64,000 nucleotides of DNA from the IMG/VR virus record IMGVR_UViG_3300044646_003076. One strand, 5' to 3'. This document shows positions 8,457 through 29,790 of this stretch, in pieces; within the stretch, counting starts at the first letter, position 1; every line of letters starts with the position of its first letter. Under the pieces are notes generated by a model. That model was given only the letters and a program-made list of their open reading frames with translations. It was not told the DNA's origin and ran no database searches. This stretch comes from a virus. The translations under genes were made by a program, and so were the position numbers.

Positions 8457-9014
8457 ATGAATAAAGTTGAATTAGCTAAAGATCCAAACACTCCACTAGA
8501 AACTTTAGAACTTCTAGCGACAGATAAGTATTCTAGTGTTCGCTCCAGAGTAGCACAAAATCCCAATACACCACCAAAAGTCTTAGAACAACTAGCGACT
8601 GATGAGGATGATTTGATTCGTTATTGGGTAGCAGAAAATCCAAACACACCACCAAAAGTTCTAGAACAACTATCAACCGAAAAGGATTCTAGTGTTCGCT
8701 CCAGAGTAGCACAAAATCCCAATACACCACCAAAAGTCTTAGAACAACTAGCGACTGATGAGGATTGGTATGTTCGTTGGGATGTAGCAAAGCATCCCAA
8801 CGCACACCCAAAAGCCCTAGAACAATTAGCGACCGATAAGGATTCTTCGGTTCGTCGTGGTGTAGCATATAATCCAAACACTCCACCAAAAGCCTTAGAA
8901 CAACTAGCGACCGATGAGGATCTTTATGTTTGTCGTAGTGTGGCACGAAATCCAAACACACCACGCTACATCAAAAAGTATATTAAAATTCAAGAACATC
9001 TAAAAACATTATGA
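8457..9014 (+). CDS. LRV repeat protein, 6 units + C-tail
   Basis: 78-nt units; tail PRYIKKYIKIQEHLKTL. Confidence 0.9.
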   Translation: MNKVELAKDPNTPLETLELLATDKYSSVRSRVAQNPNTPPKVLEQLATDEDDLIRYWVAENPNTPPKVLEQLSTEKDSSVRSRVAQNPNTPPKVLEQLATDEDWYVRWDVAKHPNAHPKALEQLATDKDSSVRRGVAYNPNTPPKALEQLATDEDLYVCRSVARNPNTPRYIKKYIKIQEHLKTL

Positions 9015-9331
9015 GAATTCTGTCTATTTCATTTAATGCCTTTATATTAGTCATTGACATTATCATTGTTTTGATTATCAATGTCTTTGAGCTTGTTATT
9101 GCATTCTTGGCTATTTTATTGTTCAATAATCCAGACTATGAACCACTTATCAGTCAAGAAAGGCGGCTTAATTTCATAGATCAAATGAATGATTCTTATC
9201 TAAAACTAAGTGATTTTAACCCTGAGAATTTTGATAATGAGAATGATGCATTAGACTTCATAAATCAACATCTGAAAGACGCTAACCGACTGTACTGGAC
9301 AATGATCCTAGGTGACCCTGAGAGGCCCTAG
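9011..9331 (+). CDS. membrane protein
   Basis: long N-terminal hydrophobic helix; ATG overlaps LRV stop. Confidence 0.65.
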   Translation: MRILSISFNAFILVIDIIIVLIINVFELVIAFLAILLFNNPDYEPLISQERRLNFIDQMNDSYLKLSDFNPENFDNENDALDFINQHLKDANRLYWTMILGDPERP

Positions 9332-9463
9332 AAGATGGCTTTAGTCCGTCTGCCGTGTTCTAGGATGGTCAGCATCACTCAAAGGACGATTTTAGAACTG
9401 TCCACCAGGACCTCTTAGCTCTCTAGAGATATGTTATTCTTTAGAAGAACTAAGAGGTATTTC

Positions 9464-9730
9464 TTGTCAAGAACACTCTATCATGCAACAACACCAAAAA
9501 AGGTACAAAAATACCATCAAACTGGTCACATTATCAAACCTGTTAGAGGATTCACAACTCTTGAAGCTGCAATGGCCTGGGCAATGAAAACTCAACGATC
9601 GGTAATTCTTGAAATCTCAGGGAATGATTGTCATAAACTTCCAGATCATCACAATAAATTCGGAGAAGCGTGGTGGTTTGATGAAAATATCTCCACTTGG
9701 AAATGTATTGTTTCACCAGGAAAGGTTTAA
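9464..9730 (+). CDS. hypothetical protein (LYHATT...G.I motif, possibly ART-like fold)
   Basis: TTG start after aagagg; track start 9431 lies within the promoter. Confidence 0.6.
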   Translation: MSRTLYHATTPKKVQKYHQTGHIIKPVRGFTTLEAAMAWAMKTQRSVILEISGNDCHKLPDHHNKFGEAWWFDENISTWKCIVSPGKV

Positions 9731-9736
9731 TTGATT

Positions 9737-10102
9737 ATGAAATACTGTTATTTTTTGTATGCTAGATCAAACAAAACTTTTACAATTAATTTTACTAAAA
9801 CATTAGACCGTGAAATTTCTGCTACGGACATTATGGAAGTGGAAAAATATCTTGAAACCAGATATCCCGAAAGCGGTAAGTGGACCACTGCTTCAATAAC
9901 TCTTCTGTCAAAAACGAATGAGAATTCAGACGAGACGAATCCTTATGTTGTTCATAATGTCTCACGCAATGAGAAAACTCATTTTCCTTTCCGAAGTGAT
10001 GCTGAAGCTTATTTTGATCTTCTTAAGGATGAATTGGGTTCTGGTTGTGAAATTGAGATGTGTATGATTATTAAGAAGCATGTCCCACCAGAAAGATTGT
10101 GA
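9737..10102 (+). CDS. hypothetical protein
   Basis: tiles operon. Confidence 0.65.
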   Translation: MKYCYFLYARSNKTFTINFTKTLDREISATDIMEVEKYLETRYPESGKWTTASITLLSKTNENSDETNPYVVHNVSRNEKTHFPFRSDAEAYFDLLKDELGSGCEIEMCMIIKKHVPPERL

Positions 10103-10181
10103 CGGTTTTTGATCTGGCACACATCTTGATCCCTGGCGCCGTTCTATCCATTATTCTTGATTAGTTATTGGAGAAAAAACC

Positions 10182-10691
10182 ATGAACATTTTTGCAACTT
10201 CATCTTGTCCCGAACAATCAGCAATCGTTCTTCCCGATAAGCACATCAATAAGATGCCAACTGAATGTTGTCAGATGTTGGCATATGTTGCATCATCTTC
10301 TTACAATAACTACGGAACAATTCCAAAAATCAACGGTGAACCATATAAGACCACAAATATCGCTCATCTTAAGCATCCATGTACTAAATGGGCAGCAGAA
10401 TCAATCCATAATGCTTCCTGGTTGATTTATCATGCGTTTATGTTGTGTGAAGAATTTGAGCGCCGATTTGGCCATAAACATGGAACTTATGATACTCTCA
10501 TGGCAGCTTATGAGATGTTTCCAGAAGGCCAATTTTCGTTGATGACTCCATTTGTTCGCTCAATGGATGAAGTTTTTAAGTTTGATAATACCATTGATAC
10601 GTTTATTGCATATAAGCGTTATCTTGCGAGTAAGCCATGGATTCAAGATAATTATGTTCGTATGCCCGAAAGGAAACCAGAATGGATTTAA
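10182..10691 (+). CDS. denV: pyrimidine-dimer DNA glycosylase/endonuclease V-like protein
   Basis: MNIF...DKHINKMPTECCQML, HPCTKW, EFERRFGHKH, TPFVRSM pattern of cyanophage Pyr_excise family. Confidence 0.75.
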   Translation: MNIFATSSCPEQSAIVLPDKHINKMPTECCQMLAYVASSSYNNYGTIPKINGEPYKTTNIAHLKHPCTKWAAESIHNASWLIYHAFMLCEEFERRFGHKHGTYDTLMAAYEMFPEGQFSLMTPFVRSMDEVFKFDNTIDTFIAYKRYLASKPWIQDNYVRMPERKPEWI

Positions 10692-11014
10692 ATTCTAAAA
10701 TAGTACAAGCTAATAGCCCAAACACCCCAACAAAAGTCCTAGAACAACTAGCGACCGATGCGGATTATCTTGTTCGTTTGGGGGTGGCACATAATCCAAA
10801 CACACCACCAAAAATATTAGAACAACTAGCGACTGATAAGAATCTTGGTGTTCGTTATTGGGTAACAAGAAATCCAAACACACCACCAAAAACCTTAGAA
10901 GTTCTAGCGACCGATAAGAGTTCTGAGGTTCGTGAATGTGTAGCAAGAAATCCAAACACACCACACTACATCAAAAAGTATCTTAAAATTCAAGAACATC
11001 TAAAAACATTATGA
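10682..11014 (+). CDS. LRV repeat protein, 3 units + C-tail
   Basis: repeat units and tail PHYIKKYLKIQEHLKTL. Confidence 0.9.
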   Translation: MDLNSKIVQANSPNTPTKVLEQLATDADYLVRLGVAHNPNTPPKILEQLATDKNLGVRYWVTRNPNTPPKTLEVLATDKSSEVRECVARNPNTPHYIKKYLKIQEHLKTL

Positions 11015-11504
11015 GCAAACTTGAACAAGCTAAACATCCAAACACATCACCAGAAGTCTTAGAAAAACTAGCGACCGATGAGCACTGTTGGGTTCGTCAA
11101 GCTGTAGCAAAAAATCCAAACACTTCGTCAAAAATTCTAGAAATTCTATCTGTTGATGGGGATCCTTGGGTTCGTTATAATGTAGCACTACATCCAAACA
11201 CACCACCAGAAATTCTAGAGCAATTAGCATCTGATAATAAATCTTATATTCGTCGGATAGTAGCAGAAAATCCAAATACACTAACAAAACACTATAACAA
11301 CTAGCTACCGATGAGTATCATTTGGTTCGTGAAGAAGTAGCAAGATATCAAAACAGTCCACCAAAAGCACTAGAACTACTAGCGACCGATGAGGATAACA
11401 ATGTTCTTATTAGGGTATTATTCAATCCAAACACACCTCACTATCTCAAAAAGTATCTTAAAATTCAAGAACATCTGAGGACACTTCTCAAACTGTCACA
11501 ATAA
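11011..11504 (+). pseudogene. LRV repeat protein (5 units + tail) broken by a 1-nt deletion and a GAA>TAA nonsense at 11287-11297
   Basis: aaaacactataacaacta versus canonical aaaacactagaacaacta; downstream frame continues to the tail. Confidence 0.75.
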
Positions 11505-11557
11505 CCACCCATTTCCACCATTCATCCGTTAAACTACAAACTGTATCTGAAGTTATC

Positions 11558-12253
11558 ATGAATTCTTCTGAAATCACAACCGCTGTTAGTGAAGCACTCC
11601 AACGACATATTCCTCTTATTGTTGAAGAGGTAACAACAAAGCTAACCAAGAAAGAAAAATGGGAAGATTATAGTGTTGAGAAACTATCTGCGATGGCTGT
11701 AAGTGAAGATTACAAACAAAGATGTTCCGCAGCAGCACATCCAAGAACACCCATGGAAATCATTTATAAGCTGCTTGAGGATCCGAATCATAATGTTCGG
11801 TTAGCAGTGGGCAGAAATCCTAATATTCCACTCATCACTCTTAGCTCACTTTCATTATATCCATCGTTGCTCAAAAAACTTAAAACTGAGGGGAATTTAA
11901 ATCAAATTATGGAGTTTTTTGATGAAGCTATTAAGTCTAAAGCCAATAAAAGCACCCGACGAAGCTTTAGAATGTTGATTGAAGAAAGAATTATGAATGG
12001 TGATTTTGATGACGAGCTTAATAACGGTATTAGTGGTTGGTATGGAGTTTTTAATTTGAATACACCAGCCAAATCACTTATTAATTGGACTGAAAAAACT
12101 TCAGATTTTTATTATGATTTTAGATTTTTATGTAAACTCATGATTAAATATCGGATCAAAAGATTCCTCCAAACTGCAACGCAAGATGAAAAAGAGTTAT
12201 TGCTTCATGTAGATTCTTTGTTGTTTCGGCGTTATTTTGATTCCACTTCTTAA
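11558..12253 (+). CDS. protein with degenerate LRV units
   Basis: AAAHPRTPMEIIYKLLEDPNHNVRLAVGRNPN. Confidence 0.75.
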   Translation: MNSSEITTAVSEALQRHIPLIVEEVTTKLTKKEKWEDYSVEKLSAMAVSEDYKQRCSAAAHPRTPMEIIYKLLEDPNHNVRLAVGRNPNIPLITLSSLSLYPSLLKKLKTEGNLNQIMEFFDEAIKSKANKSTRRSFRMLIEERIMNGDFDDELNNGISGWYGVFNLNTPAKSLINWTEKTSDFYYDFRFLCKLMIKYRIKRFLQTATQDEKELLLHVDSLLFRRYFDSTS

Positions 12254-12322
12254 ACTGTCACACTACAAACAGAAGATCAGCGTTTCCTGACTTACACTGT
12301 ATGAGTCTTCAACCAGCTTCGT

Positions 12323-12529
12323 ATGACTTTCTCAGAATTCCGCCGAAACGCAAAAAACTCCGCAATCCATAATCCTTCGCGTTCTTATGGGCAAGCGATC
12401 ATGGATTATCTTTATGGTGTTTCTCCTAGACTTTATCATCAAATTCCCGATGGTGCAAATCCCACTCATGACGATTCACGATCTGATGCCTTTTTTGAAT
12501 TTGTTCAGACCAATTGGACCAAGATCTGA
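12323..12529 (+). CDS. hypothetical protein
   Basis: follows class A promoter. Confidence 0.7.
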   Translation: MTFSEFRRNAKNSAIHNPSRSYGQAIMDYLYGVSPRLYHQIPDGANPTHDDSRSDAFFEFVQTNWTKI

Positions 12530-12566
12530 GTTAAACTAAATTCATTCAACTTCATGGTATTTAATT

Positions 12567-12782
12567 ATGTACAATGTAACTTCGCGCCAAGTAACAACCA
12601 AAGTTATTAATCTTTCTCTTGATGGTGAACTAGCAAGAAATTTGGCTAGACTTATTGAAACTCATCAAAAAATTAATAATTCACGATCTGGTTCTTTTTT
12701 TGATTTCGTTAAGATAGAGATTGATCCTAAAATATGTCTTGAACTTGAAAATCTCGCTAATTCTCTCAAGGGACATCTTTAA
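12567..12782 (+). CDS. hypothetical protein
   Basis: tiles operon. Confidence 0.65.
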   Translation: MYNVTSRQVTTKVINLSLDGELARNLARLIETHQKINNSRSGSFFDFVKIEIDPKICLELENLANSLKGHL

Positions 12783-12784
12783 TC

Positions 12785-13012
12785 ATGAGCACAACATTTT
12801 TAAAAAGTAATCAAATCACGATCGGTTCAAAATGGAAGCGTGTTGATGGTTCTAAACAAATTGTAACAATTGACAATATTAAGAATTATCCAGCTTCCGA
12901 TCACGAATTAAGCAATTGGTGTTATGTTTATTATTCCTGGGAAGAAAATGAACAGACTATGAGTGATCATAGAGATCATCTAAGTTTTCAATGTCGTTAT
13001 TGTCCATTATGA
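12785..13012 (+). CDS. hypothetical protein
   Basis: tiles operon. Confidence 0.7.
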   Translation: MSTTFLKSNQITIGSKWKRVDGSKQIVTIDNIKNYPASDHELSNWCYVYYSWEENEQTMSDHRDHLSFQCRYCPL

Positions 13013-13347
13013 CACACGTACAATATAAGCGATATCTTATTCGCAACAAAATGCTCAAATCAAAAAGAAAAGCGGAAAAAGAAGAGCCCAAAATTAAAAG
13101 AAGAATCGGGTATGAAATCTATTATTATGATCCAGAAAATAATGGAAAATTAGCTGAGAGGGATTTTAACTCTGTTATTAGAGCCCGTTCTTTTGTTAAT
13201 AATCTTCTCAAAAAGTATCATCAACAACGTATTGATTTAGAGATTGTTAAAGTCTGGTGTTATCGGAATCATCATCCGAGACACAAGACTTATTATGCCT
13301 GTTATCCCGATGAACCGAACAGATGGATCAAGTGTGACGGTTATTGA
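13009..13347 (+). CDS. basic hypothetical protein
   Basis: ATG overlaps upstream stop. Confidence 0.7.
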   Translation: MTHVQYKRYLIRNKMLKSKRKAEKEEPKIKRRIGYEIYYYDPENNGKLAERDFNSVIRARSFVNNLLKKYHQQRIDLEIVKVWCYRNHHPRHKTYYACYPDEPNRWIKCDGY

Positions 13348-13418
13348 GCTGTCCACTCGTTCTTCTGTTTTTCTCTGATTCTTATTATTCTAATTTTGCT
13401 CACAAGGAGGAATTTTTC

Positions 13419-14609
13419 TTGGCTCATTTTCACAAATCCGGCTCAGTTATTCGTGTTTCTGATTCTGGATCCGATATTCTTGATCAGCTTCCGGTCGGAA
13501 ATTATGTCCTAAAAGTTAATCATATGACTGGTTTCTATCTAGATATGGTGGAAAGCTTCAAACTCCCTGATAAGATTTATGGCGATTGTACCAGTAATGC
13601 AACTCGGGTTTTGAATACTTACAGGGATCGGGCTCGTAATACTGGAGTTCTTCTTGTTGGCCAAAAAGGTAGTGGTAAAACTCTTTTGATGAGGAAGATT
13701 AGTATTGACTCCAATCTTCCTGTAATTATTATCAACAGTAATTTTACCGGAGACACTTTCAATTCATTCTTGAGTTCTATCACACAACCTTGCATTATTC
13801 TTTTTGATGAATTTGAGAAAATTTATGATCGTAAATCTCAAGAACAAGTGCTGACTCTTTTTGATGGCACTTATCAATCAAATAAACTGTTTCTTATTAC
13901 ATCCAACAATAAGTGGACTTTAGATGATAATATGAAGAATCGTCCAGGCCGTATTTATTACCTGTTTGAATTTGGTGGTCTTGGCGAGGCGTTTATTCGG
14001 GAGTATTGTGAAGATAATCTACAAGATAAGAGTAAAATCAATAAAATTATTGTAATCTCAAAGCTCTTTCTAGAATTTAACTTTGATATGCTTCATGCCG
14101 TTGTTGAAGAGACTAATCGTTATGGAGACGAACCAAGTAAATTGCTGAATATTCTTAACACTAAACCTGAATATAGTGATGAGATGACTTACGATGTCAC
14201 CATTAATATTGGGGATCTTACTGTTCCAACTTCGGCTCTAAATTCAGGAGGAAAAGTGAGGGTTAATCCGTTTATGGGTGAATGGAGTATCAGTGTTTAT
14301 TTTTGTTGGAGTAGATTGTTAAACGAAGAGTTGGAACAAATAATCTCTAATGAAATTGATGATCGTGATACTCCCCATACAACTTATCAGGAATGGCTAA
14401 GGGAGCGTCATATTTTCTTCGGGCGTAGTAATAGTGAGATTCCTAGAGGGGAAACCTCATACGATTATCTCAATCTTGATATTTCACCTGATAAAATTGT
14501 GAGGAGTGCTGGTGGGTCTGTTACATTTCAACATGAGAATGGATTCATTGTCACTTTGTCACGCTCAAAACAACCTCAGTCCGTAGATGTGGCCTATTCT
14601 ATGCTTTAA
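13419..14609 (+). CDS. AAA+ ATPase
   Basis: GQKGSGKT, ILFDEFEK, second region of homology RPGRI; TTG start after aaggagg. Confidence 0.9.
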   Translation: MAHFHKSGSVIRVSDSGSDILDQLPVGNYVLKVNHMTGFYLDMVESFKLPDKIYGDCTSNATRVLNTYRDRARNTGVLLVGQKGSGKTLLMRKISIDSNLPVIIINSNFTGDTFNSFLSSITQPCIILFDEFEKIYDRKSQEQVLTLFDGTYQSNKLFLITSNNKWTLDDNMKNRPGRIYYLFEFGGLGEAFIREYCEDNLQDKSKINKIIVISKLFLEFNFDMLHAVVEETNRYGDEPSKLLNILNTKPEYSDEMTYDVTINIGDLTVPTSALNSGGKVRVNPFMGEWSISVYFCWSRLLNEELEQIISNEIDDRDTPHTTYQEWLRERHIFFGRSNSEIPRGETSYDYLNLDISPDKIVRSAGGSVTFQHENGFIVTLSRSKQPQSVDVAYSML

Positions 14610-14703
14610 TCTTTTTGAGTGAGTGGTCGGTTTTCTAGCTGTCCACTCATTCCACCGTTCTCTCGGATTTCCGTTATTGTATTACTAATTCCACGAAACC
14701 ACC

Positions 14704-14961
14704 ATGATCACTGGTCCTGTTTTCTCTATTGATCTCACAAAAGTTGAGTCATTTGATAATCTTCAAGAAGCGATGAATCAGCACACCGATGAGCTTCAAG
14801 AATATTTTGAAGAATTAGCAGCAGAACTTGAAGTTTCTGTTGAGTGTGCTCATGATGTTTGGTATTTGCGCACTAGATCACGGCACACTCCCGAATTGGA
14901 AGCCGAACTTATCAAATTGCATAATGCGGGAACACCTCCCAATATGTGTGAATTTGGTTGA
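14704..14961 (+). CDS. acidic hypothetical protein
   Basis: follows class A promoter. Confidence 0.7.
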   Translation: MITGPVFSIDLTKVESFDNLQEAMNQHTDELQEYFEELAAELEVSVECAHDVWYLRTRSRHTPELEAELIKLHNAGTPPNMCEFG

Positions 14962-14995
14962 ATTACACTCTTTTTCTCAAACCCACAAAACGCAA

Positions 14996-15382
14996 ATGAC
15001 TCCTAAATTTCCCACCAGTTGTTATATCTCCAACATTCATCGTGGAGAGAGCGGACATGTGTATGCGCAACTTAACGGTCCAGATGGAACACTTTTGATT
15101 TCCGCTACTTTAGATTACATCCAAGATCAACTATCTAAAGCGGAATTCGTTCAAGAAAATTTTAGAGGAGTGTACTCGGGAATTGCTAATATTTTCAATT
15201 ATTCCAATAACTCAGGAATCAATAATAGATTTATGAGAATTGGCAACGAAGGATTTTATAATTGGTACGAATGGTCAGGTGAAAGGAACATCTGGAGATG
15301 TTTCAATGACGAACTGATGTGTGATAAAAAAGATCTAGAAAAAGAACTCGAAAAAGCTTATCAATCCTGGAAACTTGTATGA
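14996..15382 (+). CDS. hypothetical protein
   Basis: probable start MTPKF. Confidence 0.65.
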   Translation: MTPKFPTSCYISNIHRGESGHVYAQLNGPDGTLLISATLDYIQDQLSKAEFVQENFRGVYSGIANIFNYSNNSGINNRFMRIGNEGFYNWYEWSGERNIWRCFNDELMCDKKDLEKELEKAYQSWKLV

Positions 15383-15651
15383 AAGAAGATCTTCAAAAAA
15401 TGAGACAAGAGCAGAATCTTCAACTTCTGCCCACGGAAATGAGTTACAAACTCCGCCAAGCTCTTGATGGTAAAGGTCCCTTCGCCGAATTGTGGAAAGA
15501 TGCACCACATCAGGTTCTTCTTATTGCATGTGAAGAAATGGAAGAATTTGCAGAATGGAGTCGGCAAATGGAAGATTCCCAGCGAGAAATTAATGGTGAT
15601 TACGAATCATTTAAAAGAACCCTAAGGACAGTTTCTAAGCTGTCCACTTGA
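15379..15651 (+). CDS. hypothetical protein
   Basis: tiles operon. Confidence 0.7.
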   Translation: MKEDLQKMRQEQNLQLLPTEMSYKLRQALDGKGPFAELWKDAPHQVLLIACEEMEEFAEWSRQMEDSQREINGDYESFKRTLRTVSKLST

Positions 15652-15704
15652 TCCTTCCGATACTCTTCTTTTTTGTTATTCTTGTTTTGTAACCGGAGAT
15701 TTCC

Positions 15705-16100
15705 ATGAGCTACACTCGTTCCAAACTTGATCTTCTTTCCGAGAATGATAGTTTCGGGCCAGATGAAGAAGGCATTTATCCTAGCTATTATCATAACGGA
15801 AAAACTCCCTTTTCGCATCGATACAGTTATGATCCTTTTTATGTGTGGCGCAATAACACAAAACCGAATAACACATATTATTCCGATCGTCTCTATTCAT
15901 GGGATTATAAAAAACACGACGAACTTTGTCAAAAACATTTTGGTAATCAAGGTCAATATTGGAGGCAAAGAAATCCAGAAAAAATTCAAGAATTCCTTCG
16001 GGATTACAGCGACAATCCCAATTTGATCTTGTGTCGTGTTATTGAATATTGTAACAAATCTAATGGATATCCCGTTTGGCGTCTTGACACTTTTCAATAA
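15705..16100 (+). CDS. hypothetical protein (Tyr/Trp-rich)
   Basis: RBS ggag; follows class A promoter. Confidence 0.75.
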   Translation: MSYTRSKLDLLSENDSFGPDEEGIYPSYYHNGKTPFSHRYSYDPFYVWRNNTKPNNTYYSDRLYSWDYKKHDELCQKHFGNQGQYWRQRNPEKIQEFLRDYSDNPNLILCRVIEYCNKSNGYPVWRLDTFQ

Positions 16101-16127
16101 CCCAACACTACCAGAAAGGAACCATCT

Positions 16128-16388
16128 ATGAAACGTTTCACCGCAGCAGAGGCCCGCGAAGCTCAAAAAGAACACTGTGCCACACTACAGGAGATCTATA
16201 GTAAAATTGAAGAACATATTTCTAAATGTGCAACTCTTTGTATTCCATACATTGAGATTAAGATTGATTCAGAGGATTATTATGGAACGGAGTCAGGTAA
16301 ATGGGATCTCATAACTAGAGAACTAGAAAAAGATGGTTATACTGTTAATTATAATGAATATACATACGAGTTTAAAATATCATGGTAA
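16128..16388 (+). CDS. hypothetical protein (ISW family)
   Basis: paralog of 1783 gene. Confidence 0.75.
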   Translation: MKRFTAAEAREAQKEHCATLQEIYSKIEEHISKCATLCIPYIEIKIDSEDYYGTESGKWDLITRELEKDGYTVNYNEYTYEFKISW

Positions 16389-16393
16389 CAAAT

Positions 16394-16681
16394 ATGCCAA
16401 TCACCACATTTAAAAAAGTCCAGAGCGATCCAAATTATTATACAATAGAAGATGTTTTTGATAATGGTGATGAGACACTAGGCGAAATTTATGATGAAAT
16501 TCGTGAATACACTAAAAATCATGATTGCATTGGTTATAATGTGTTTGTAAAATGTTTTCAAGCTAAACGGATTAAATCTGAATTAGAAAGAAATGGTTAC
16601 TATGTTAGTACATCAGAGGTACAAACAAAATGTGATGGTCTTATGACTCATTTGTATATTAGTTGGGATAAAGAAACATGA
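16394..16681 (+). CDS. hypothetical protein (ISW family)
   Basis: paralog of 16128 gene. Confidence 0.7.
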   Translation: MPITTFKKVQSDPNYYTIEDVFDNGDETLGEIYDEIREYTKNHDCIGYNVFVKCFQAKRIKSELERNGYYVSTSEVQTKCDGLMTHLYISWDKET

Positions 16682-16905
16682 AAAAACAAGATCTCATTGA
16701 AACTCTAAGCCGGCTTCCTGACGATACTGAAATTTTTATGATGAGTCCAGAACATCTAAGAAAAGGTCAGTTTCGTTTTAAATCAGTAAACGGTTGTAGT
16801 CAATCGGAAGTCGCTCCTGATTATAGTGCAGGATTTAACATTTATAAACACCTGCAACACAACGAATCCTCTAACGAACTTAAACCCGTTGCTATTCTTT
16901 ATTAA
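16678..16905 (+). CDS. hypothetical protein
   Basis: tiles operon. Confidence 0.7.
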   Translation: MKKQDLIETLSRLPDDTEIFMMSPEHLRKGQFRFKSVNGCSQSEVAPDYSAGFNIYKHLQHNESSNELKPVAILY

Positions 16906-16986
16906 GTGAACAATCCCTAACCCGTCCAATCTATTCCCCTTTCTCCGAATTTCTCTGTTACAATGGAAGCTGATCTCTGAGGTATT

Positions 16987-17679
16987 ATGACCATAAATCT
17001 TTTGGAATTTGTTGAAAAAGAAGTTAATGTATATTTTAATGAAAATCCCCCAATAAAAAATACCTATATCTCTTTCTCTGGTGGTTACTATCACGTAAAG
17101 AATACCAACCCCACTTATCTTTATTGGAATAATGGAAAATCTACTTTTTGTAGTGATCTCAACATCACCCACATTGAATTCACCAAACCAATGAACCAAA
17201 AACAACAACTGATTCAAAAAATCCAATCTCTTGAAGAACAACTGAGGACTACAAAAGAACAACTGAAGAATCTGAAAGTCAAACCAGAAGACGCTGATGT
17301 TGGTGATGTACTAGATGACGGTTCAATCGTTTTTCTACGAGGCGATGATTTTATTATCGTTATGGCTAATCCAGAATTTGACTTATTTTGTCAATATGAC
17401 GACTCAATGGCGAATTATTTTGCATCTACAGTGTTCTTGAAATCGGGCAATGATCGTTCCATCGCCGAATGGTTTCTTCCTGATGCCAATCTTATGAGGC
17501 GGGCGATGCTTGTGCTACCAAATATGTTTAAAAACGAATATTATTGGACATCAAGTAAAGGTAAAGTGGATTTTAATCGTCAAAAGATTTTATGGTGCAA
17601 TGGAGTTGTTCGGGGTTCTGAATCTACCGCTGGGGCTGATCTTTTTTATATGCGAGCCTTCAAGGTAATTCATTTTTGA
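16987..17679 (+). CDS. hypothetical protein with central coiled coil
   Basis: RBS gagg; QQLIQKIQSLEEQLRTTKEQL. Confidence 0.7.
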   Translation: MTINLLEFVEKEVNVYFNENPPIKNTYISFSGGYYHVKNTNPTYLYWNNGKSTFCSDLNITHIEFTKPMNQKQQLIQKIQSLEEQLRTTKEQLKNLKVKPEDADVGDVLDDGSIVFLRGDDFIIVMANPEFDLFCQYDDSMANYFASTVFLKSGNDRSIAEWFLPDANLMRRAMLVLPNMFKNEYYWTSSKGKVDFNRQKILWCNGVVRGSESTAGADLFYMRAFKVIHF

Positions 17680-17683
17680 TAAC

Positions 17684-18724
17684 ATGGCTAAGAGTAATCA
17701 GCTTATTCCAAAAATTCCCGAAGAAGCGTCTTCTGCGATTGATCTAGCCAAGAAAACAACAGATAGAGCTGTTCTTATTGCTCTTTCAAAACATACTAAT
17801 GATGATGTAAGATTCTTTGTTGCTGAAAATCGTTACACTCCTGTCGAAGTTCTCCGGGAACTTTCAAAGGATCCATATTTTACTGTTCGGCTTAAAGTTG
17901 CGGGAAATCCTTCAACTCCTTCAGATGTTTTAGAGAATATTATGGAAAATGATATTTCTCTTAAGGCAGAAGTGGAAAATAATCTTTCTTATAAAAGTAA
18001 AGATAAAGAAGAAGTTCAGGCTTTTCTTAAGAACATTAGTATAACTGATGCCAAAAATTTAGCGGAAAATATTAATACTCCTCCTGAGACACTTATTAAA
18101 CTTGCCAGACATAAAGATTCACTTGTTACTTATCATATATCTTGTAATCCCATGACTCCAACAGAAGCTCTTAGAATTCTTGCCACTCTTGATGATCATG
18201 TTGTAAGAAAATATGTGTTTGATCATAATAATTCGTCAGCAGAAACCTTAGCTATTATTGATGATAGAGACGGTTTTACCACAGGACATTTTAGGATTCT
18301 TTACGACAAACAGGCCAGAATTATTGAAAAATACAAAAGAGAAGAAACACAAAGAGTTGCACAACAAGAACAAGAACAGAAACGTCTAAAAGAAAAAGAA
18401 GAAAAACTTCAGAGAGAATTAGAACTGAGACAAGAATCTCAAAGAATCCTCGCAATTATTAGTAATCCTGAAACACCTATTGAAGAATTATTAAAATACA
18501 GCTATCGTGAAGAACTCATTAACAACCCAACCTATAGGAGATACCTAAATCTCAATAAGACAGACCCAACTGATTTAGAAATTCTAGATTTTCTAGATTG
18601 GGTCTATAATGCAGACACAGAAAAACTAGAAGCCTTTGCTAAACTAGATTTATCTAAGAAATTATCATTGTGGGAAAAACTAATTCTGTTCTTTAAAAAT
18701 CTCTTTAACGGAAAAACATTATGA
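17684..18724 (+). CDS. degenerate LRV/HEAT repeat + coiled-coil protein
   Basis: VRFFVAENRYTPVEVLRELSKD, VAGNPSTP units; Q/E/K-rich helix. Confidence 0.8.
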   Translation: MAKSNQLIPKIPEEASSAIDLAKKTTDRAVLIALSKHTNDDVRFFVAENRYTPVEVLRELSKDPYFTVRLKVAGNPSTPSDVLENIMENDISLKAEVENNLSYKSKDKEEVQAFLKNISITDAKNLAENINTPPETLIKLARHKDSLVTYHISCNPMTPTEALRILATLDDHVVRKYVFDHNNSSAETLAIIDDRDGFTTGHFRILYDKQARIIEKYKREETQRVAQQEQEQKRLKEKEEKLQRELELRQESQRILAIISNPETPIEELLKYSYREELINNPTYRRYLNLNKTDPTDLEILDFLDWVYNADTEKLEAFAKLDLSKKLSLWEKLILFFKNLFNGKTL

Positions 18725-19002
18725 ATCGTTTTGAAAATCTTCTACTCAGCTTAGGTATTGCTGCTTTTATCGGATTGATTATTGCGATGATCGTTCTCAA
18801 CTATAATTACGAAAAGAATTATGTTGCAACGAATGATTGCCATCTCACCGGAAATACTAAAACCGAAGAATACTCATACTGGGTCACTACTGATTCAACG
18901 ACCGGAGCTGGTTTTGTTGATTATGGCGAATACACCACTTATGAGTATTATTGTAATGTCACCGGAAGCAATAAATGGTTTATGTATCGGTTTTACGACT
19001 GA
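18721..19002 (+). CDS. membrane-anchored protein
   Basis: N-terminal TM helix. Confidence 0.7.
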   Translation: MNRFENLLLSLGIAAFIGLIIAMIVLNYNYEKNYVATNDCHLTGNTKTEEYSYWVTTDSTTGAGFVDYGEYTTYEYYCNVTGSNKWFMYRFYD

Positions 19003-19084
19003 TGCCACTTTGAAAGCTGTCCACCACTGAGTTCTCAGCCACGTTATTGGTGCTATAGTACATTCTACCAACAAGGAGTTTTTA

Positions 19085-19723
19085 ATGTCAATCACAACTG
19101 AACAACTAATAGAGATTTTCAAAAAAGTTCTTTCGGAAATAGAAAATCTAAATGTTGTAAACCTTTCTTATGATGAAAAGAGAACGCTTGCTTGCGATCC
19201 CGAAACCTCACCAAAAGCTCTAAAGTTTCTAGCGACCGATGAGGATTATTGGGTTCGTTGGAGTGTAGCAAATAGTCCAAACACTCCACCAAAAGTCCTA
19301 GAACAACTAGCGACCGATGAGGATTCTGTTGTTCGTTCCAAAGTAGCACTAAACCCAAACACTCCACCAGAAGCTCTAGAACTTTTAGTAGCAGATGATA
19401 ATGTTGATGTTCGTTGGAGTGTAGCGGAAAATCCAAACACACCACCAAAAGCCCTAGAACAATTAGCGACCGATGAGGATTATTCGGTTCGTTGTGGTGT
19501 AGCACGGAATCCAAACACTTCACCAAAAGCTCTAGAACAACTAGCGACCGATGAGGATTCTTGGGTTCGTTGTTGTGTAGCAAAAAATCCAAACTACCAA
19601 AAATCTACAGTAAAAGTTCCAGATCTATCTGTGACCGAATATGAGGCCCTAAAAGAACTACTCAAAAATACACAAAATCAAAGTCTAAAATCTCTTTCCA
19701 CTAAACTAGGAGTCATTCAATGA
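19085..19723 (+). CDS. LRV repeat protein, 5 units, alternative N- and C-caps
   Basis: canonical units; tail NPNYQKST...EYEALKELLKN. Confidence 0.9.
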   Translation: MSITTEQLIEIFKKVLSEIENLNVVNLSYDEKRTLACDPETSPKALKFLATDEDYWVRWSVANSPNTPPKVLEQLATDEDSVVRSKVALNPNTPPEALELLVADDNVDVRWSVAENPNTPPKALEQLATDEDYSVRCGVARNPNTSPKALEQLATDEDSWVRCCVAKNPNYQKSTVKVPDLSVTEYEALKELLKNTQNQSLKSLSTKLGVIQ

Positions 19724-19980
19724 TCAAACGAATTATTGCAATTTCAATCTGTGCTCTACTTCTTACTTCATGCACACAGCCCGACCGAACAACTCGTATT
19801 CTGGAAGATCAAGGTTATTCAAATATTCAGACACATGGTTTCGGATTTATGCAACTGTTTCAGTGTTCTGAAGATGACACTTTTAGAACACCCTTTACTG
19901 CTGAATCATCCACAGGCCGGCAAGTTACCGGAGTTGTCTGCTCTGGTATTTTTAAAGGTGCCACCGTTCGTTTTGATTGA
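19720..19980 (+). CDS. putative lipoprotein
   Basis: signal peptide with LLTSC lipobox. Confidence 0.7.
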   Translation: MIKRIIAISICALLLTSCTQPDRTTRILEDQGYSNIQTHGFGFMQLFQCSEDDTFRTPFTAESSTGRQVTGVVCSGIFKGATVRFD

Positions 19981-19989
19981 GGAACTATT

Positions 19990-20370
19990 ATGAACATCAC
20001 TGAACGCATTCAACAAGCAAACGAAAACTTTATCAAACAAAGAGGAGCCTATTATCAGGAGATGAGAGTTATTGCGGAAGATTACACAAAGGAAGTTATT
20101 ACTCCTTTCTGTGAGCGTTATAATTTGACTTATGATCTTTCCGATCATCCTTTCACAGCAGAACAAGGATTTTGGTATAGTGACGGTGATAAGAATTATT
20201 ATGTCAATAGAAAAGACTTCGCTCTAGAACGATATCCTAAAATCTTCTCAGGGTTTCCTGATTCATTTTGGGTTGAATTGCATCAGATTTATGATACGAT
20301 TTATTCGAGCTGTCCAGACCAAGAACACAAACCTATTTTTGAAAATTTTTGCTCTTCTGTTTCAAAATGA
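19990..20370 (+). CDS. hypothetical protein
   Basis: RBS gagg. Confidence 0.7.
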   Translation: MNITERIQQANENFIKQRGAYYQEMRVIAEDYTKEVITPFCERYNLTYDLSDHPFTAEQGFWYSDGDKNYYVNRKDFALERYPKIFSGFPDSFWVELHQIYDTIYSSCPDQEHKPIFENFCSSVSK

Positions 20371-20600
20371 TAATCCCTCTAGGATCAAACCAAAACGAAA
20401 AAATTCTATCCAACGGCAATAAGATTCTCTTTTCTTATTCAAAACCTGTTGCCGCTTTTGTTGTTGGAGAAGGTTATTTGAGAACTTATGATCCTTGTTC
20501 TTATACAACGAATTCTCACATCAATAAATGGATAGAAAACAATGCCTGTGCTCTCGTACCACAAAAACGGATTGATGAGATCCTACATGCCGGTTCATGA
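20367..20600 (+). CDS. hypothetical protein (SYxxPVA...YSxTTxxHINKW type)
   Basis: ATG overlaps upstream stop. Confidence 0.7.
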   Translation: MIIPLGSNQNEKILSNGNKILFSYSKPVAAFVVGEGYLRTYDPCSYTTNSHINKWIENNACALVPQKRIDEILHAGS

Positions 20601-20671
20601 ACTGACACATCTACCATTCAAACATAATCATTCATAATCTACAATAAAAACATCCATTCCACTCTTCGGAA

Positions 20672-21286
20672 ATGAAACCTCAATTCTTCTCCGCTCAAAT
20701 TCCATTTATGGGATTTTATGGTTCCATTCATTCTGATGTTATTGATCACGAAGAAGAACAACTGTTCACTTCTGATACAGGAAAGTTCTATGATGCACTT
20801 TATGATGACTTTTTTCTTCATGTGAATTGGGAACAAGTTTATCAGAAGTATGCAACAGCTTATTGCGATGAATTCGCTAAGACTTTTGGTATCACTCTTG
20901 ATTTTGAAGAGTTAGTTTCTCCGAGAGAATATAACTTCCAAACCGATCGGATTTTCGCAAAGATTTCAAGGAATGATCTTGCAAAGATTCTTAAAAAAGT
21001 TCGCGGGGAGAAACTGAAGAATACAACCAATAAGCTCTTTTCTTCTCGTTCAGGATTCATTTCTCATTATTCCAATAACATCAGAGATTGGGGTAAAATT
21101 TCTACATGGGATCATAATCAAATCTATGCAATTTTAGTTGCGTTCACTGAATCTTCTTTCTCGGAAGATGAAATCTTGTCTAGTATTATTGTAAACAATG
21201 ATGTTAGTGATTGGATTTATGAATCCGCAGATTATGAAGGTAAACTTGCTGTGAGATTTGCTGACATTATGAGGAGAGTTTATTGA
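20672..21286 (+). CDS. hypothetical protein
   Basis: IPFMGFYGS, SPREYNFQTDRIFAKI; follows class A promoter. Confidence 0.8.
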   Translation: MKPQFFSAQIPFMGFYGSIHSDVIDHEEEQLFTSDTGKFYDALYDDFFLHVNWEQVYQKYATAYCDEFAKTFGITLDFEELVSPREYNFQTDRIFAKISRNDLAKILKKVRGEKLKNTTNKLFSSRSGFISHYSNNIRDWGKISTWDHNQIYAILVAFTESSFSEDEILSSIIVNNDVSDWIYESADYEGKLAVRFADIMRRVY

Positions 21287-21867
21287 TGGTCTGCCTAAAA
21301 ACAACAGAATCAAGAGAATCTGCTGCAAAAAATCCAAACACACCACCAAAAGCCCTAGAACAACTAGCGACCGATGAGGATTATTGGGTTCGTTATTGGG
21401 TAGCACATAATCCAAACACACCACCAAAAGCCCTAGAACAACTAGCGACCGATGAGGATGATTTGATTCGTTATTGGGTAGCACTAAATCCAAACACTCC
21501 ACCAAAAGCCCTAGAACAACTAGCGACCGATGAGGATCTTTATGTTCGTTATTGGGTAGCAGAAAATCCAAACACACCACCAAAAGCCCTAGAACAACTA
21601 GCGACCGATGAGGATTCTAGTGTTCGTTGTTGGGTAGCAGAAAATCCAAACACTCCACCAAAAGCCCTAGAGCTTCTAGCGACCGATAAGAATTCTTCGG
21701 TTCGTCGTGGTGTAGCATATAATCTAAACACTTCTCCAAAAGTCCTAGAACAACTTGCGGCCGATCACGTTTGGGTTATTCGTTGGCGTGTGGCAAAAAA
21801 TCCAAACACACCCCGCTACATCAAAAAGTATCTTAAAATTCAAGAACATCTTATGACACTTCCATAA
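21283..21867 (+). CDS. LRV repeat protein, 6 units + C-tail
   Basis: near-perfect 78-nt units; tail PRYIKKYLKIQEHLMTLP. Confidence 0.9.
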   Translation: MMVCLKTTESRESAAKNPNTPPKALEQLATDEDYWVRYWVAHNPNTPPKALEQLATDEDDLIRYWVALNPNTPPKALEQLATDEDLYVRYWVAENPNTPPKALEQLATDEDSSVRCWVAENPNTPPKALELLATDKNSSVRRGVAYNLNTSPKVLEQLAADHVWVIRWRVAKNPNTPRYIKKYLKIQEHLMTLP

Positions 21868-21934
21868 CTGTCCACCGACCAACATCTTCTTCACTTGACT
21901 CCCGCTATTATGGTAACGCCAACGGAGATTTTCA

Positions 21935-24409: not shown

Positions 24410-24751
24410 ATGCTTTTTTCTAACGATGTTTTCAGAGGAGTGGGAGAATATAGTGGAACATTTCTTCATCATTTCTTCTTAGACTGTGCTGCCAAACACG
24501 ACAAAACAAATCCAGGTTTTATTGAACGAATCGCAGAAAAAGAACAAACTGATATTACATTAACTATTGATGGAGAAGAAGTTGATATAACCGAAACTCT
24601 TCAATTTTACTGGTCACAAATGGATGACATGATTAAAGAGCGAGCATGTAAACTAATGCGAGACAAATTTGTTGATATTAGTGATAATTTACAGATTATT
24701 GAAGACACTGTTCTTTGTAAGATGAAGAATGAACTCGGGATTGATTATTAA
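24410..24751 (+). CDS. hypothetical protein
   Basis: RBS gagg. Confidence 0.7.
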   Translation: MLFSNDVFRGVGEYSGTFLHHFFLDCAAKHDKTNPGFIERIAEKEQTDITLTIDGEEVDITETLQFYWSQMDDMIKERACKLMRDKFVDISDNLQIIEDTVLCKMKNELGIDY

Positions 24752-25353
24752 TGATTATGATGAAGAATGAAGATATTACGAAGCTAACACGTAAAGAAAA
24801 ATGTAATCAAGCTAGAGATCCAAACACCCCATCGGAAGTTTTAGAACATTTAGCAACCGATGTGGATTATTCTGTTCGTTATTGGGTGGCACATAATCCA
24901 AATACGTCACCAAAAGCTCTAGAACAACTAGCGACCGATGTGTATTCTAATGTTCGTTGTGGAGTAGCAGAAAACCCAAACACACCACCAAAAGCCCTAG
25001 AACTTCTAGCGACCGATAAGGATCATTTTGTTCGTTGTGATGTAGCAAGAAATCCAAACACTCCACCAACAACATTGGAACTTCTAGCTACTGATAGGTG
25101 TGGTTATGTTCGTTGGGATGTAGCACAAAATCCAAACACTCAACCAAAAAGTCTAGAGCAATTAGCGACCGATAGGTATTATGATGTTCGTCGTGGTGTA
25201 GCAGAAAACCCAAACACACCACCAAAAGCCCTAGAACAACTAGCGACCGATGAGTATTATGGGGTTCGTTATTTTGTAGCACAAAATCCAAACACACCAC
25301 ACTACATCAAAAAGTATCTTAAAATTCAAGAACATCTGAGGACACTTCAATAA
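24751..25353 (+). CDS. LRV repeat protein, 6 units + C-tail
   Basis: canonical units; tail PHYIKKYLKIQEHLRTLQ. Confidence 0.9.
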   Translation: MIMMKNEDITKLTRKEKCNQARDPNTPSEVLEHLATDVDYSVRYWVAHNPNTSPKALEQLATDVYSNVRCGVAENPNTPPKALELLATDKDHFVRCDVARNPNTPPTTLELLATDRCGYVRWDVAQNPNTQPKSLEQLATDRYYDVRRGVAENPNTPPKALEQLATDEYYGVRYFVAQNPNTPHYIKKYLKIQEHLRTLQ

Positions 25354-25419
25354 CTGTCACAATAACCACTCGTTACACCATAGAAATCTGCTAGTATTCA
25401 ACTACAAACCGATCTTCTC

Positions 25420-26120: not shown

Positions 26121-27506
26121 ATGAAACTTCAAGAAATTATTGCCCGTCTGAACACCAAAGAAGAACCCTATTCCGGTGAAGATCTTCAAAAGGAGCTTGG
26201 TCACCAAAATCCAGTGGATCTTTCAATCTTTGGTTTCACTATTCGCACGATCAAGAAATATAGCACTTCCGTAAGAGCTGCCTATAAACTCATTTACCAT
26301 AGTGGTGTTCCAATTTGTATTGCTCATTATTATCAATCATTTCAATATTTTTTGGTTGATTATACGTGGATCAGTGAAGAGATCTATTGGAATATCCTGA
26401 AAATTATTAAAAATATTCACTCTCAAGATATTCGTCTTATTGATCAAAATGAAGAATGGGATCCCGTTGATATTGAACTGGAACCAATTAGTGAAATTAT
26501 TCTGTCCGAAAGACAGAAACTTGAACTGGCAAAAAATCCAAATACTTCTTCTGGATTGTTGGAGTTTCTTGCATCCGATGAGAATGAAGAGGTTCGTTCG
26601 GGAGTAGCACAAAATCCCAATACTCCACCAAAAGTCCTAGAACAACTAGCGACCGATGAGTATTCTTATGTTCGTTGTTGTGTAGCACATAATCCAAATA
26701 CTTCAACAAAAACACTAGAACAACTAGCGACCGATAAGGATTATTGGGTTCGTTGGAGAGTAGCAAAACATCCAAACACATCACCGAAAGTTCTGGAACG
26801 ACTAGCAACAGAAGAGACTGATATTAATGATTATGTTCGTCATGCTGTAGCAGAAAACCCAAATACCCCATCAGAGTTCCTAGTACGTCTAGTAACCAAA
26901 GCTACAGGAGCGTCCGATGTTGATGTTTATATTCGTCGGGGAGTAGCAGGAAATCCAAACACACCATCACCAACATTAGAAGTTCTAGTGACCGATGAAA
27001 ATGATAATGTTCGGAAACTAGCGACCGAAAATCTTAAATCAAGGAATGAAGAGGTTCGTCGGTATGTGGCAGGAAATCCAAACACACCACGTACAACATT
27101 AGAAGTTCTAGCGACCGATGATGATGATTATGTTCGTTGGTTTGTAGCACAAAATCCAAACACACCACCAGAACTTCTAGAAGTGTTGGCGAATGATGAG
27201 GCTCTTAATGTTCGTTGGTTTGTAGCAAAAAATCCAAACACACAGTCAAAAGCCTTAGAACTTCTAGCAATCAATAAGGATTTTGGTGAGCATCATTGGG
27301 GAATTCACTGTGGAGTAGCAGAGCACCCAAACACTCCATTAAAAACTTTAGAACTTTTTGTGACCCATAATAATGGTGCAGTTCGTTATTGTGTGGCAGG
27401 AAATCCAAAAACACCAACCGAAGTCTTAGAAGTGTTGGTTAATGATGAGTTTCTTAATGTTCGGGAACGAGCGACCGAAAATCTTAAATCAAGGACGGTT
27501 GCTTAA
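26121..27506 (+). CDS. fusion of N-terminal domain (paralog of 31960 gene) and about 11 LRV units
   Basis: N-term aligns with 31960-32535; LRV array from about 26515. Confidence 0.85.
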   Translation: MKLQEIIARLNTKEEPYSGEDLQKELGHQNPVDLSIFGFTIRTIKKYSTSVRAAYKLIYHSGVPICIAHYYQSFQYFLVDYTWISEEIYWNILKIIKNIHSQDIRLIDQNEEWDPVDIELEPISEIILSERQKLELAKNPNTSSGLLEFLASDENEEVRSGVAQNPNTPPKVLEQLATDEYSYVRCCVAHNPNTSTKTLEQLATDKDYWVRWRVAKHPNTSPKVLERLATEETDINDYVRHAVAENPNTPSEFLVRLVTKATGASDVDVYIRRGVAGNPNTPSPTLEVLVTDENDNVRKLATENLKSRNEEVRRYVAGNPNTPRTTLEVLATDDDDYVRWFVAQNPNTPPELLEVLANDEALNVRWFVAKNPNTQSKALELLAINKDFGEHHWGIHCGVAEHPNTPLKTLELFVTHNNGAVRYCVAGNPKTPTEVLEVLVNDEFLNVRERATENLKSRTVA

Positions 27507-27574
27507 CTGTCCACCGATGCCACCAGTGACTCGGTAACCATCTTATATTGATTCTGTTACCGAGAGATTTTCTC

Positions 27575-29074: not shown

Positions 29075-29452
29075 ATGAACGACCAACTTCAAGCACAACT
29101 TTCTCGGGTTCTTACACAGATTATGGTATCTGTGGGAGAAGTCAAAGATTTCTCTGTTGCACAACTTCCAGATATTGTTCAACAGTATATCCAATATGGA
29201 ATCTACTCATCTATTTTCTATTCTGTAATTGCTTTTCTGGTTTTTATTGTATGTGTGATTGGTTCTCATAAAGTTTTGAAATATATTAAACAAAAAGGGC
29301 GAGATAATGGTATTTCTCTTTTTATTGCATTTTTTATTGCTATCGGACTTATCAGTATAGTTGCATTCATTGTGAACATTCACAGTTTGATTATGGTTCT
29401 CACTGCACCTAAGGTGTGGTTCATTCTTGAAATCAAAAACCTTCTTTCCTAA
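29075..29452 (+). CDS. membrane protein
   Basis: two TM segments; ends APKVWFILEIKNLL. Confidence 0.75.
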   Translation: MNDQLQAQLSRVLTQIMVSVGEVKDFSVAQLPDIVQQYIQYGIYSSIFYSVIAFLVFIVCVIGSHKVLKYIKQKGRDNGISLFIAFFIAIGLISIVAFIVNIHSLIMVLTAPKVWFILEIKNLLS

Positions 29453-29790
29453 AAGTTTTAGCGATAGATCCGAAATGGTATATTCGGTATCGTGTAGCAA
29501 AGAATCCTAAAACATCGAAAGAAACTCTAGGGATTCTGGCTGCAGATGAAGATTTTAGTATTCGTTTTACTGTGACACAACATCCACATTTAAGTCAAAA
29601 AACCCTAAAAATCCTAGCGTCAGAGGAAGAATATCGTGTTCGTGATGAGGTGGCCTTGCACCCAAACACTTCAACCGAAACACTAGAGATTCTAGCGACA
29701 GATTGTGATTACCGGGTTCGGAGAAATGCAAAGATGCACCCTAATTATAAGATTTCTCGTTGGAATTTTTTGAAGTTTCTGTTCGGGTGA
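29452..29790 (+). pseudogene. 5'-truncated LRV repeat gene (about 4 units, no start codon)
   Basis: frame open from 29431 (KVLAIDPKWYIRYRVAKNPKT...) without ATG; abuts upstream stop. Confidence 0.6.

Follow-up and report, generated by a model that had tools for sequence, protein, structure and literature searches.

A family of repeat genes with a hypervariable surface

The DNA considered here, referred to throughout as the window, is a stretch of 64,000 nucleotides (nt) from IMG/VR record IMGVR_UViG_3300044646_003076, and appears from its gene content to be the hyperplastic early-gene region of an uncultured T4-like cyanomyophage. About ten genes dispersed along it encode arrays of leucine-rich repeat variant (LRV) units, and short identical tracts recur both within and between these arrays. 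Tandem Repeats Finder located 78-nt periodic arrays at eight places in the window, and the individual units were listed by a motif scan. The Pfam LRV family (PF01816) is found in seven genes, with whole-protein scores of 68-194 bits against a curated cut-off of 21.6 bits. Beyond these seven there are a frameshifted copy, a conserved divergent gene and a divergent open frame, starting at 11011, 17684 and 29431 respectively (Table 1; genes are named here by their first position). A common tail of the NPNTP-H/R-YIKKYLKIQEHLKTL type ends five of the genes and also the frameshifted copy.

Each LRV unit consists of 26 residues (78 nt), in which a short helix A, the ‘scaffold’, is followed by a nine-residue helix B; the variable part of a unit is termed its ‘cassette’. 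Among 36 canonical units, variation peaks at unit positions 16-19, 22, 23 and 26, with entropies of 2.2-3.3 bits, whilst positions 2, 3, 9, 10, 12, 15, 21, 24 and 25 are nearly invariant. An AlphaFold2 model of the product of gene 21283, with a predicted local distance difference test score (pLDDT) of 94.9 and a predicted template modelling score of 0.85, consists of alternating helices of seven and nine residues and is closed by a 14-residue capping helix formed by the tail. Helix B occupies unit positions 18-26 in this model, and the hypervariable residues, spaced i, i+1, i+4, i+5 and i+8, lie on one face of it. The hypervariable surface thus comprises positions 18, 19, 22, 23 and 26 of helix B and loop positions 16-17, and is rich in S, Y, W, C, R, G and D.

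In a Foldseek search with the model, the LRV protein of Azotobacter vinelandii (1LRV) ranks top (E 1.2e-6, template modelling (TM) score 0.66), and it is also matched by sequence (E 1.1e-18). The phage proteins belong to the same sequence family as 1LRV (PF01816, and LRV_2, PF25591) and have the same two-helix solenoid fold. Unlike it, they are encoded by small stand-alone arrays, end in a capping helix of the YIKKYLKIQEHLKTL type, occur in many copies and are hypervariable at fixed positions. The same search matched structures of alphaReps (TM scores 0.68-0.71), which are artificial binders made of HEAT-like repeats. These resemble the phage proteins in fold and in carrying a variable stripe on the second helix with the same i, i+1, i+4, i+5, i+8 spacing, although their repeat has 31 residues instead of 26. 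In alphaRep libraries, repeat positions 18, 19, 22, 23, 26 and 30 are randomised (PMC3754942). The phage sequences, in contrast, are natural, and it is their architecture that predicts a binding function.

Searches for similar genes elsewhere returned little. A tblastn search with gene 21283 gave a single weak match, to a Moorella phage; a protein search with gene 8457 gave nothing above 57% identity; and in a full-text search of about 8.4 million papers the term leucine-rich repeat variant was never paired with phage, nor LRV with cyanophage.

Identical tracts within and between arrays

The original prediction, made from the letters of the window, was that genes 13 kb apart share identical variable cassettes in different combinations, through recombination or gene conversion in the invariant scaffold. 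All the exact matches on which it drew are confirmed letter by letter. Cassettes 2 and 5 of gene 8457 are each identical at 33 of 33 nt to a cassette of gene 21283, and an 80-nt tract of gene 8457 recurs within the same gene with 80 of 80 nt identical (Table 1). It had been overlooked, however, that both 33-nt matches lie at one offset, 12,850 nt, which makes the two genes collinear seven-unit paralogs. Their two best matches join cassette 2 to cassette 2 and cassette 5 to cassette 5, in register and not in different combinations. The two genes also have in common, in register, a rare CGC codon (PRY) in the tail and a rare GTG in unit 6, and they share right half-cassettes in register with gene 24751 (YW..H in unit 1, WD in unit 4 and RG in unit 5).

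Such collinearity would be expected if there had been no exchange at all, but simply whole-gene duplication followed by independent point mutation, with cassettes 2 and 5 merely being those that have not yet changed. The single offset, the seven units of each gene, the two rare codons held in common and the register of the gene 24751 half-cassettes all speak for such a history, and the collinear 33-nt matches, taken alone, fit it. Other features do not. Where the two genes match over cassettes 2 and 5 the fastest sites are identical, yet the flanking scaffolds differ at 11-22% of positions. The in-register cassette distances between genes 8457 and 21283, at 11, 2, 11, 10, 1 and 15 of 33 nt, are bimodal and more dispersed than a Poisson process allows (chi-square 18.6, P=0.002): cassettes are either copied or as unlike as random pairs, a pattern not produced by gradual divergence from a single ancestor. 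The 80-nt tract, moreover, has replaced sequence in gene 8457 whilst the number of units stayed constant. Its right edge (8609) abuts the left edge (8601) of the match to gene 21283, so that cassette 2 is identical between the genes but its scaffold is not. Duplication with point mutation alone is on these grounds an improbable account, and the positional orthologs described below bear on it further.

The same discordance between scaffold and cassette is seen across the family. Three pairs of near-identical cassettes, differing at 0-1 of 30 nt, adjoin scaffolds that differ at 5, 10 and 13 of 45 nt (11-29%); the last of these pairs joins units 1 and 3 of gene 8457, whose cassettes differ at 1 of 30 nt. 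Scaffold distance hardly correlates with cassette distance (Mantel r=0.17, P=0.07), and the nearest neighbours of a unit by scaffold and by cassette are usually in different genes. The scaffold distance matrix of genes 8457 and 21283 shows no diagonal, because the scaffolds of gene 21283 have been homogenised, those of its units 1, 2 and 4 being identical over 51-54 nt.

The amount of sharing was assessed against a null in which each codon column was permuted independently among 37 units. Near-identical whole cassettes number three pairs where 0.05 are expected (P<0.0005), and the right dicodon (codons 22-23) is shared by 23 pairs where 6.5 are expected. Independent arrival at the same cassettes under selection for the same binding residues would find some encouragement in the restricted amino-acid alphabet at the variable sites and in the recurrence of YW and RG dicodons. 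Against it stand the excess of near-identical whole cassettes over expectation and the matching of synonymous choices: Ser-Ser is encoded as TCT-TCG solely in the two SSVRRGVAY units, and elsewhere as TCT-AGT or TCT-TCT. Convergence is thus extremely improbable as the source of the shared cassettes.

Sharing of the left dicodon (codons 18-19) shows no excess over the permuted columns, with 11 pairs against 9.5 expected (P=0.32). This bears on the proposal that DEDLYV was exchanged between unit 6 of gene 8457 and unit 3 of gene 21283. The out-of-register match exists and extends over 35 nt, but it is mostly consensus scaffold with just six hypervariable nucleotides, and since left dicodons are shared at chance level the LY coincidence has no weight on its own. 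The rare NAHPK motif, a further suggested sign of exchange, is indeed carried by unit 1 of gene 1 and unit 5 of gene 8457, but the scaffolds concerned differ at 7 of 45 nt and there are synonymous differences even inside the motif. Its sharing appears to be old or convergent and gives no sign of recent exchange. A candidate chimera, in which unit 2 of gene 8457 would combine units 2 and 3 of gene 21283 (8617-8658 matching 21545-21586, 42 nt), was rejected, as it contains three informative nucleotides, all of them common states.

Comparison with the closest relative

The closest relative, IMGVR_UViG_3300044591_002420, is a 125-kb metagenome assembly with an estimated completeness of 51%, and is syntenic with positions 1-38 kb of the window. 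For 18 of 19 non-LRV orthologs, the proportion of synonymous differences (pS) is 0.03-0.25 (mostly 0.08-0.16) and that of non-synonymous differences (pN) 0.01-0.08; pooling all 19 gives a pS of 0.175 and a pN of 0.046. The pooled values include an outlier, the gene at 6562-7836 directly upstream of LRV gene 8457, with a pS of 0.53 and 71% amino-acid identity against 92-98% for its neighbours. This gene matches no Pfam family, and its divergence suggests either an allelic replacement or a second fast-evolving locus.

Each hypervariable LRV locus occupies the same position in the relative, where its flanks and leader are conserved; it is the arrays that differ. At locus 8457 there are seven units in the window and three in the relative. 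At locus 21283 the single seven-unit gene of the window corresponds to a four-unit and a two-unit gene joined by an ATGA stop/start overlap (85846-86360 in the relative). The relative lacks three of the window's unit number at each of loci 19085 and 24751, and its version of gene 26121 is 180 residues shorter. The converse fusion is also seen, two window genes (10682-11504) corresponding to one gene of the relative (78941-79354). The junction of tail, ATGA and leader behaves as a module that is open to gain or loss.

Turnover within the arrays is concentrated on the variable surface. When units are anchored by unique flanks, pN is 0.44 and pS 0.22 at hypervariable codons, and pN is 0.12 and pS 0.28 at scaffold codons, against 0.03-0.05 and 0.13-0.18, respectively, for the backbone. 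Not all LRV genes of the phage are hypervariable, since the protein encoded at 17684-18724 is 91% identical to its counterpart (pS 0.10, pN 0.05). The positional orthologs of genes 8457 and 21283 in the relative contain none of the shared cassettes and do not resemble each other, which is a further point against simple duplication of a common ancestral array.

None of the window's cassettes lies within one mismatch of any of the relative's 64 canonical units, the best distances being 2-14 of 30 nt and mostly 3-9. With whole-cassette identity defined as an exact match over all 12 nt of codons 18, 19, 22 and 23, identities are found in 3 of 820 unit pairs within the window and 4 of 2,016 within the relative, but in 0 of 2,624 pairs between the two phages. 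The difference between within- and between-phage pairs is significant (Fisher P=0.010), also after removal of two tandem cases (P=0.038). A scan of 2.9 million IMG/VR contigs, which also missed the window's own contig, contained no exact match to either of the two shared cassettes. As identities occur solely within phages and the cassettes are absent from the contigs scanned, the shared patches postdate the split of the two phages. No stable pool of cassettes is common to both, and turnover at hypervariable codons is faster than silent divergence.

The relative has patches of its own. Its positions 32350-32495 and 89141-89286 are identical at 143 of 146 nt, although the loci are 57 kb apart. 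The tract takes in the last cassette and the tail and runs on through about 45 nt of non-coding sequence downstream; beyond its borders the two loci are 69% (left) and 42% (right) identical. As the window ortholog of the 89-kb locus, gene 24751, has this downstream flank at 91% identity, the flank is native there. The tract represents an ectopic conversion over a distance of 57 kb. The relative contains two more patches, one of which is out of register and joins a last unit to an internal one (19652-19705 and 37576-37630). Counted from the tail, register is kept in four of the five inter-locus patches, a bias that would be expected if full-length arrays pair by their longest homology.

These patches also bear on whether the shared tracts could have been produced by assembly, through repeat collapse or chimeric paths in short-read metagenome data. 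The window is apparently an uncultured assembly, identity extends over 51-54 nt in its scaffold repeats and over 80 nt in one repeat, and the relative has fewer units at every locus, all of which would suit such an artefact. However, locus-specific variants lie within 1-2 nt of either end of each 33-nt match, which implies that spanning k-mers longer than about 35 nt must exist in the reads; the arrays are in frame with intact tails; and patches of this kind are also seen in the relative, which was assembled independently. It is very unlikely that assembly created the shared tracts, but the 80-nt repeat, and the order of units whose scaffolds are identical over 51-54 nt, can be verified only with reads.

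A probable mechanism without dedicated machinery

The mosaic anatomy observed in these arrays and the statistics on it, taken with the fold and with the comparison of the two phages, are probably best explained by short-tract gene conversion among dispersed LRV genes, together with point substitution as the main diversifier and without any dedicated mechanism. Four processes would act together. Genes may be born and lost, the in-register paralogs 8457, 21283 and 24751 being among the products. Units may be gained or lost, and genes fused or split, by unequal recombination. Tracts of about 30-150 nt may be converted ectopically between units and between loci kilobases apart. Finally, rapid point substitution in the hypervariable codons, probably under positive selection, would supply most of the surface diversity. 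The homology for conversion could come from the near-identical scaffolds of 45-57 nt and from the conserved tail, and the shared 33-nt cassettes would be either patches converted recently and in this lineage only, or what is left of a copy of the whole array from one collinear paralog to the other.

The original prediction is therefore upheld in so far as recombination or gene conversion through the scaffold is supported, but shuffling is not the main source of diversity. Several results limit the shuffling reading: the lack of window cassettes among the relative's 64 units, the excess of pN over pS at hypervariable codons, the absence of half-unit blocks in codon linkage and a non-significant test for recombination (both given below), and the clustering of units by gene, which is weak at scaffold sites (0.170 versus 0.184, P=0.03) and absent at hypervariable codons (P=0.09). 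We read conversion as secondary: it would occasionally copy or re-assort patches, and keep the scaffolds uniform. At the moment when a cassette is copied, diversity within the genome is lowered.

It had also been said that the window holds no dedicated recombinase, and this stands for the roughly 40 open reading frames (ORFs) that were scanned: neither Pfam nor PHROGs detected a reverse transcriptase, an integrase, a recombinase or an HNH/homing nuclease among them. In view of this we infer that the agent would be the phage's general recombination and replication machinery, or template switching, and the direction of most events is proposed in the same indirect way. A comparison of 26 T4-like genomes, 16 of them from cyanomyophages, found uvsX and uvsY in every one of those 16 (PMC3037559).

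A programmed system, either a cassette archive of the vlsE, pilS or tprK type or a diversity-generating retroelement, would be suggested by the confinement of hypervariability to fixed codons and by the size and dispersal of the family. Several observations make it very improbable. All copies except the frameshifted gene 11011 are complete genes with their own start and tail. The ORFs scanned, about 40, include no reverse transcriptase, integrase or nuclease. Substitutions involve all bases and are not adenine-specific, and no template repeat was found in the window or in the relative's 125 kb. Linkage between codons is present without modular blocks: over 105 units, the mutual information between codon columns shows a diffuse weak association with one strong pair, 22-23 (z 5.8), and a half-unit block structure was not found, since codon 19 shows no linkage to codon 22 across the GTTCGT core, yet codons 18 and 23 are linked.

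Several results weigh against conversion by general machinery and temper our confidence in it. Recombination genes were not found in the window, and the relative's 51%-complete contig has no RecA-family match. The pairwise homoplasy index (PHI), applied to the 78-nt alignment of 37 units in which the hypervariable sites are saturated, is not significant (P 0.74-0.89), although saturation and the clustering of fast sites may blunt this test. The in-register signal across the three seven-unit genes is marginal (P=0.076), and the counts of recent events are small (three in the window and four in the relative). The comparison depends on a single relative, because scans of IMG/VR with three neighbour genes returned one close contig only, and a metagenome scan with a conserved neighbour gene returned nothing above 44%. 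The differences in unit number between the phages could in part reflect repeat collapse in assembly.

A stronger version of gene conversion may also be considered, in which patchy, in-register conversion is not a side effect of recombination but itself a selected form of evolvability, maintaining an antibody-like repertoire of binders by re-assorting helix-B stripes, again without a dedicated enzyme. We regard this as unlikely. If it held, re-assortment might proceed on ecological time scales, and also between co-infecting relatives, so as to track host targets or defences; this extension seems to us equally doubtful.

Genomic context

The right end of the window carries T4-type baseplate genes, encoding a gp6-like wedge subunit (phrog_219, E 8e-195) and a giant gp7-like protein. 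The best cultured matches of the gp6-like protein are in Synechococcus phages B3 and B23, at 64% amino-acid identity, whilst Megablast of the window against cultured phages gave no matches. The first 30 kb consist of small, mostly unannotated plus-strand genes. The G+C content of the window is 36%, and no tRNA genes were found in it.

The LRV genes and the tracts discussed above are collected in Table 1. Gene 11011 is either a decaying family member or the result of a sequencing error. Behind the tails of the RTLP/RTLQ type there is a common TAACTGTC motif, followed by short, dyad-flanked AT-rich boxes before the next ATG (21868-21940, 25354-25425 and 27507-27580); these boxes are probably cassette-junction promoters.

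Table 1. LRV genes and shared tracts in the window
Feature	Position	Strand	Evidence or match
LRV gene, 3 units and conserved C-terminal tail; NAHPK in unit 1	1..324	+	Pfam LRV E 2.8e-19
LRV gene 8457, 6 canonical units and tail unit (PRYIKKY variant)	8457..9014	+	Pfam LRV E 3.8e-41
Exact intragenic 80-nt tract: cassette 1 and scaffold 2	8530..8609	+	Second copy 8686..8765 (cassette 3 and scaffold 4)
Cassette 2 (DEDDLIRYWVA)	8601..8633	+	Identical to 21451..21483, in register; flanking scaffold differs at 5/45 nt
Cassette 5 (SSVRRGVAY)	8842..8874	+	Identical to 21692..21724, in register; flanking scaffold differs at 10/45 nt
Scaffold and LY dicodon, 35-nt exact match	8896..8930	+	Identical to 21512..21546; unit 6 against unit 3, out of register
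LRV gene, 3 units and tail; stop overlaps start of next LRV gene (ATGA)	10682..11014	+	Pfam, unit list
LRV gene with one-base frameshift and stop near 11290-11304; other frame runs on to normal tail	11011..11504	+	
Divergent LRV-containing protein, 346 residues, conserved rather than hypervariable	17684..18724	+	Pfam LRV E 3.9e-15
LRV gene, 5 units, different C-terminal domain	19085..19723	+	Pfam, unit list
LRV gene 21283, 6 canonical units and tail unit (PRYIKKY variant)	21283..21867	+	Pfam, units, AlphaFold2 (pLDDT 94.9)
Third 7-unit LRV gene; right half-cassettes common in register to 8457 and 21283	24751..25353	+	Pfam, units
Long LRV gene, 461 residues, N-terminal non-repeat domain	26121..27506	+	Pfam
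Open frame, 3-4 divergent LRV units, start codon ambiguous	29431..29790	+	Motif scan

Other genes of the region include a DenV-like pyrimidine-dimer DNA glycosylase (Pyr_excise, E 8e-10) and an AAA_33/KTI12-like kinase, which lie amid the LRV genes (10182-10691 and 321-806). A class II aspartyl-type tRNA synthetase (tRNA-synt_2 and GAD domain, E 3.5e-118) is encoded at 4453-6228 and is 98% identical to the version in the relative. A class I synthetase of tyrosyl or tryptophanyl type is divided between two ORFs, with the catalytic part at 33241-33960 and the S4/C-terminal part at 33978-34361. The non-coding sequence at 37964-38337 contains dense AT-rich direct repeats with periods of 27, 68-70 and 97 nt, and a 19-nt repeat present 3.7 times (98% match).

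Relation to known systems and significance

Interlocus gene conversion and concerted evolution are exemplified by the repeats of transcription activator-like (TAL) effectors, by the ankyrin-repeat families of poxviruses and by micro-conversion in the major histocompatibility complex (MHC). The phage LRV genes resemble these families in their short, sharp-edged patches of identity between paralogs, in a framework that is homogenised whilst contact residues stay diverse, in greater sharing within than between genomes, and in having no need of a dedicated enzyme. Sharp-bordered tracts, discordant genealogies and greater likeness within a genome, by which such conversion is recognised, are all seen in the LRV genes. 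They differ from those families in belonging to a lytic T4-like cyanophage, in their 26-residue unit and in tracts that are as short as about 33 nt and mostly in register.

In antigenic variation by segmental gene conversion, as in Borrelia vlsE, Neisseria pilE/pilS and Treponema tprK, short segments are likewise copied between homologous cassettes through conserved flanks. The phage genes, however, have no single expression site and no silent archive, the copies being complete genes except for the broken gene 11011, and there is no sign of programmed or high-frequency switching. Known means by which phages diversify their binding proteins are retroelements and the swapping of tail-fibre modules. 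The LRV family has in common with diversity-generating retroelements that a phage-encoded protein surface is diversified at fixed codons; unlike them, it shows no reverse transcriptase, template repeat or adenine-specific pattern in the window and the relative's 125 kb.

A lytic T4-like cyanophage here keeps a large family of solenoid proteins in which the framework is near constant, whilst silent sites turn over more slowly than one helical stripe. No mechanisms other than general recombination and point substitution are in evidence for this family. Its cassettes do not constitute a fixed library that can be reused, positional orthologs between strains should not be assumed, and short-read assemblies of such arrays need validation at the level of reads. 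Should the LRV proteins turn out to be binders directed at the host, the engineered alphaRep scaffolds would have a natural counterpart in them.

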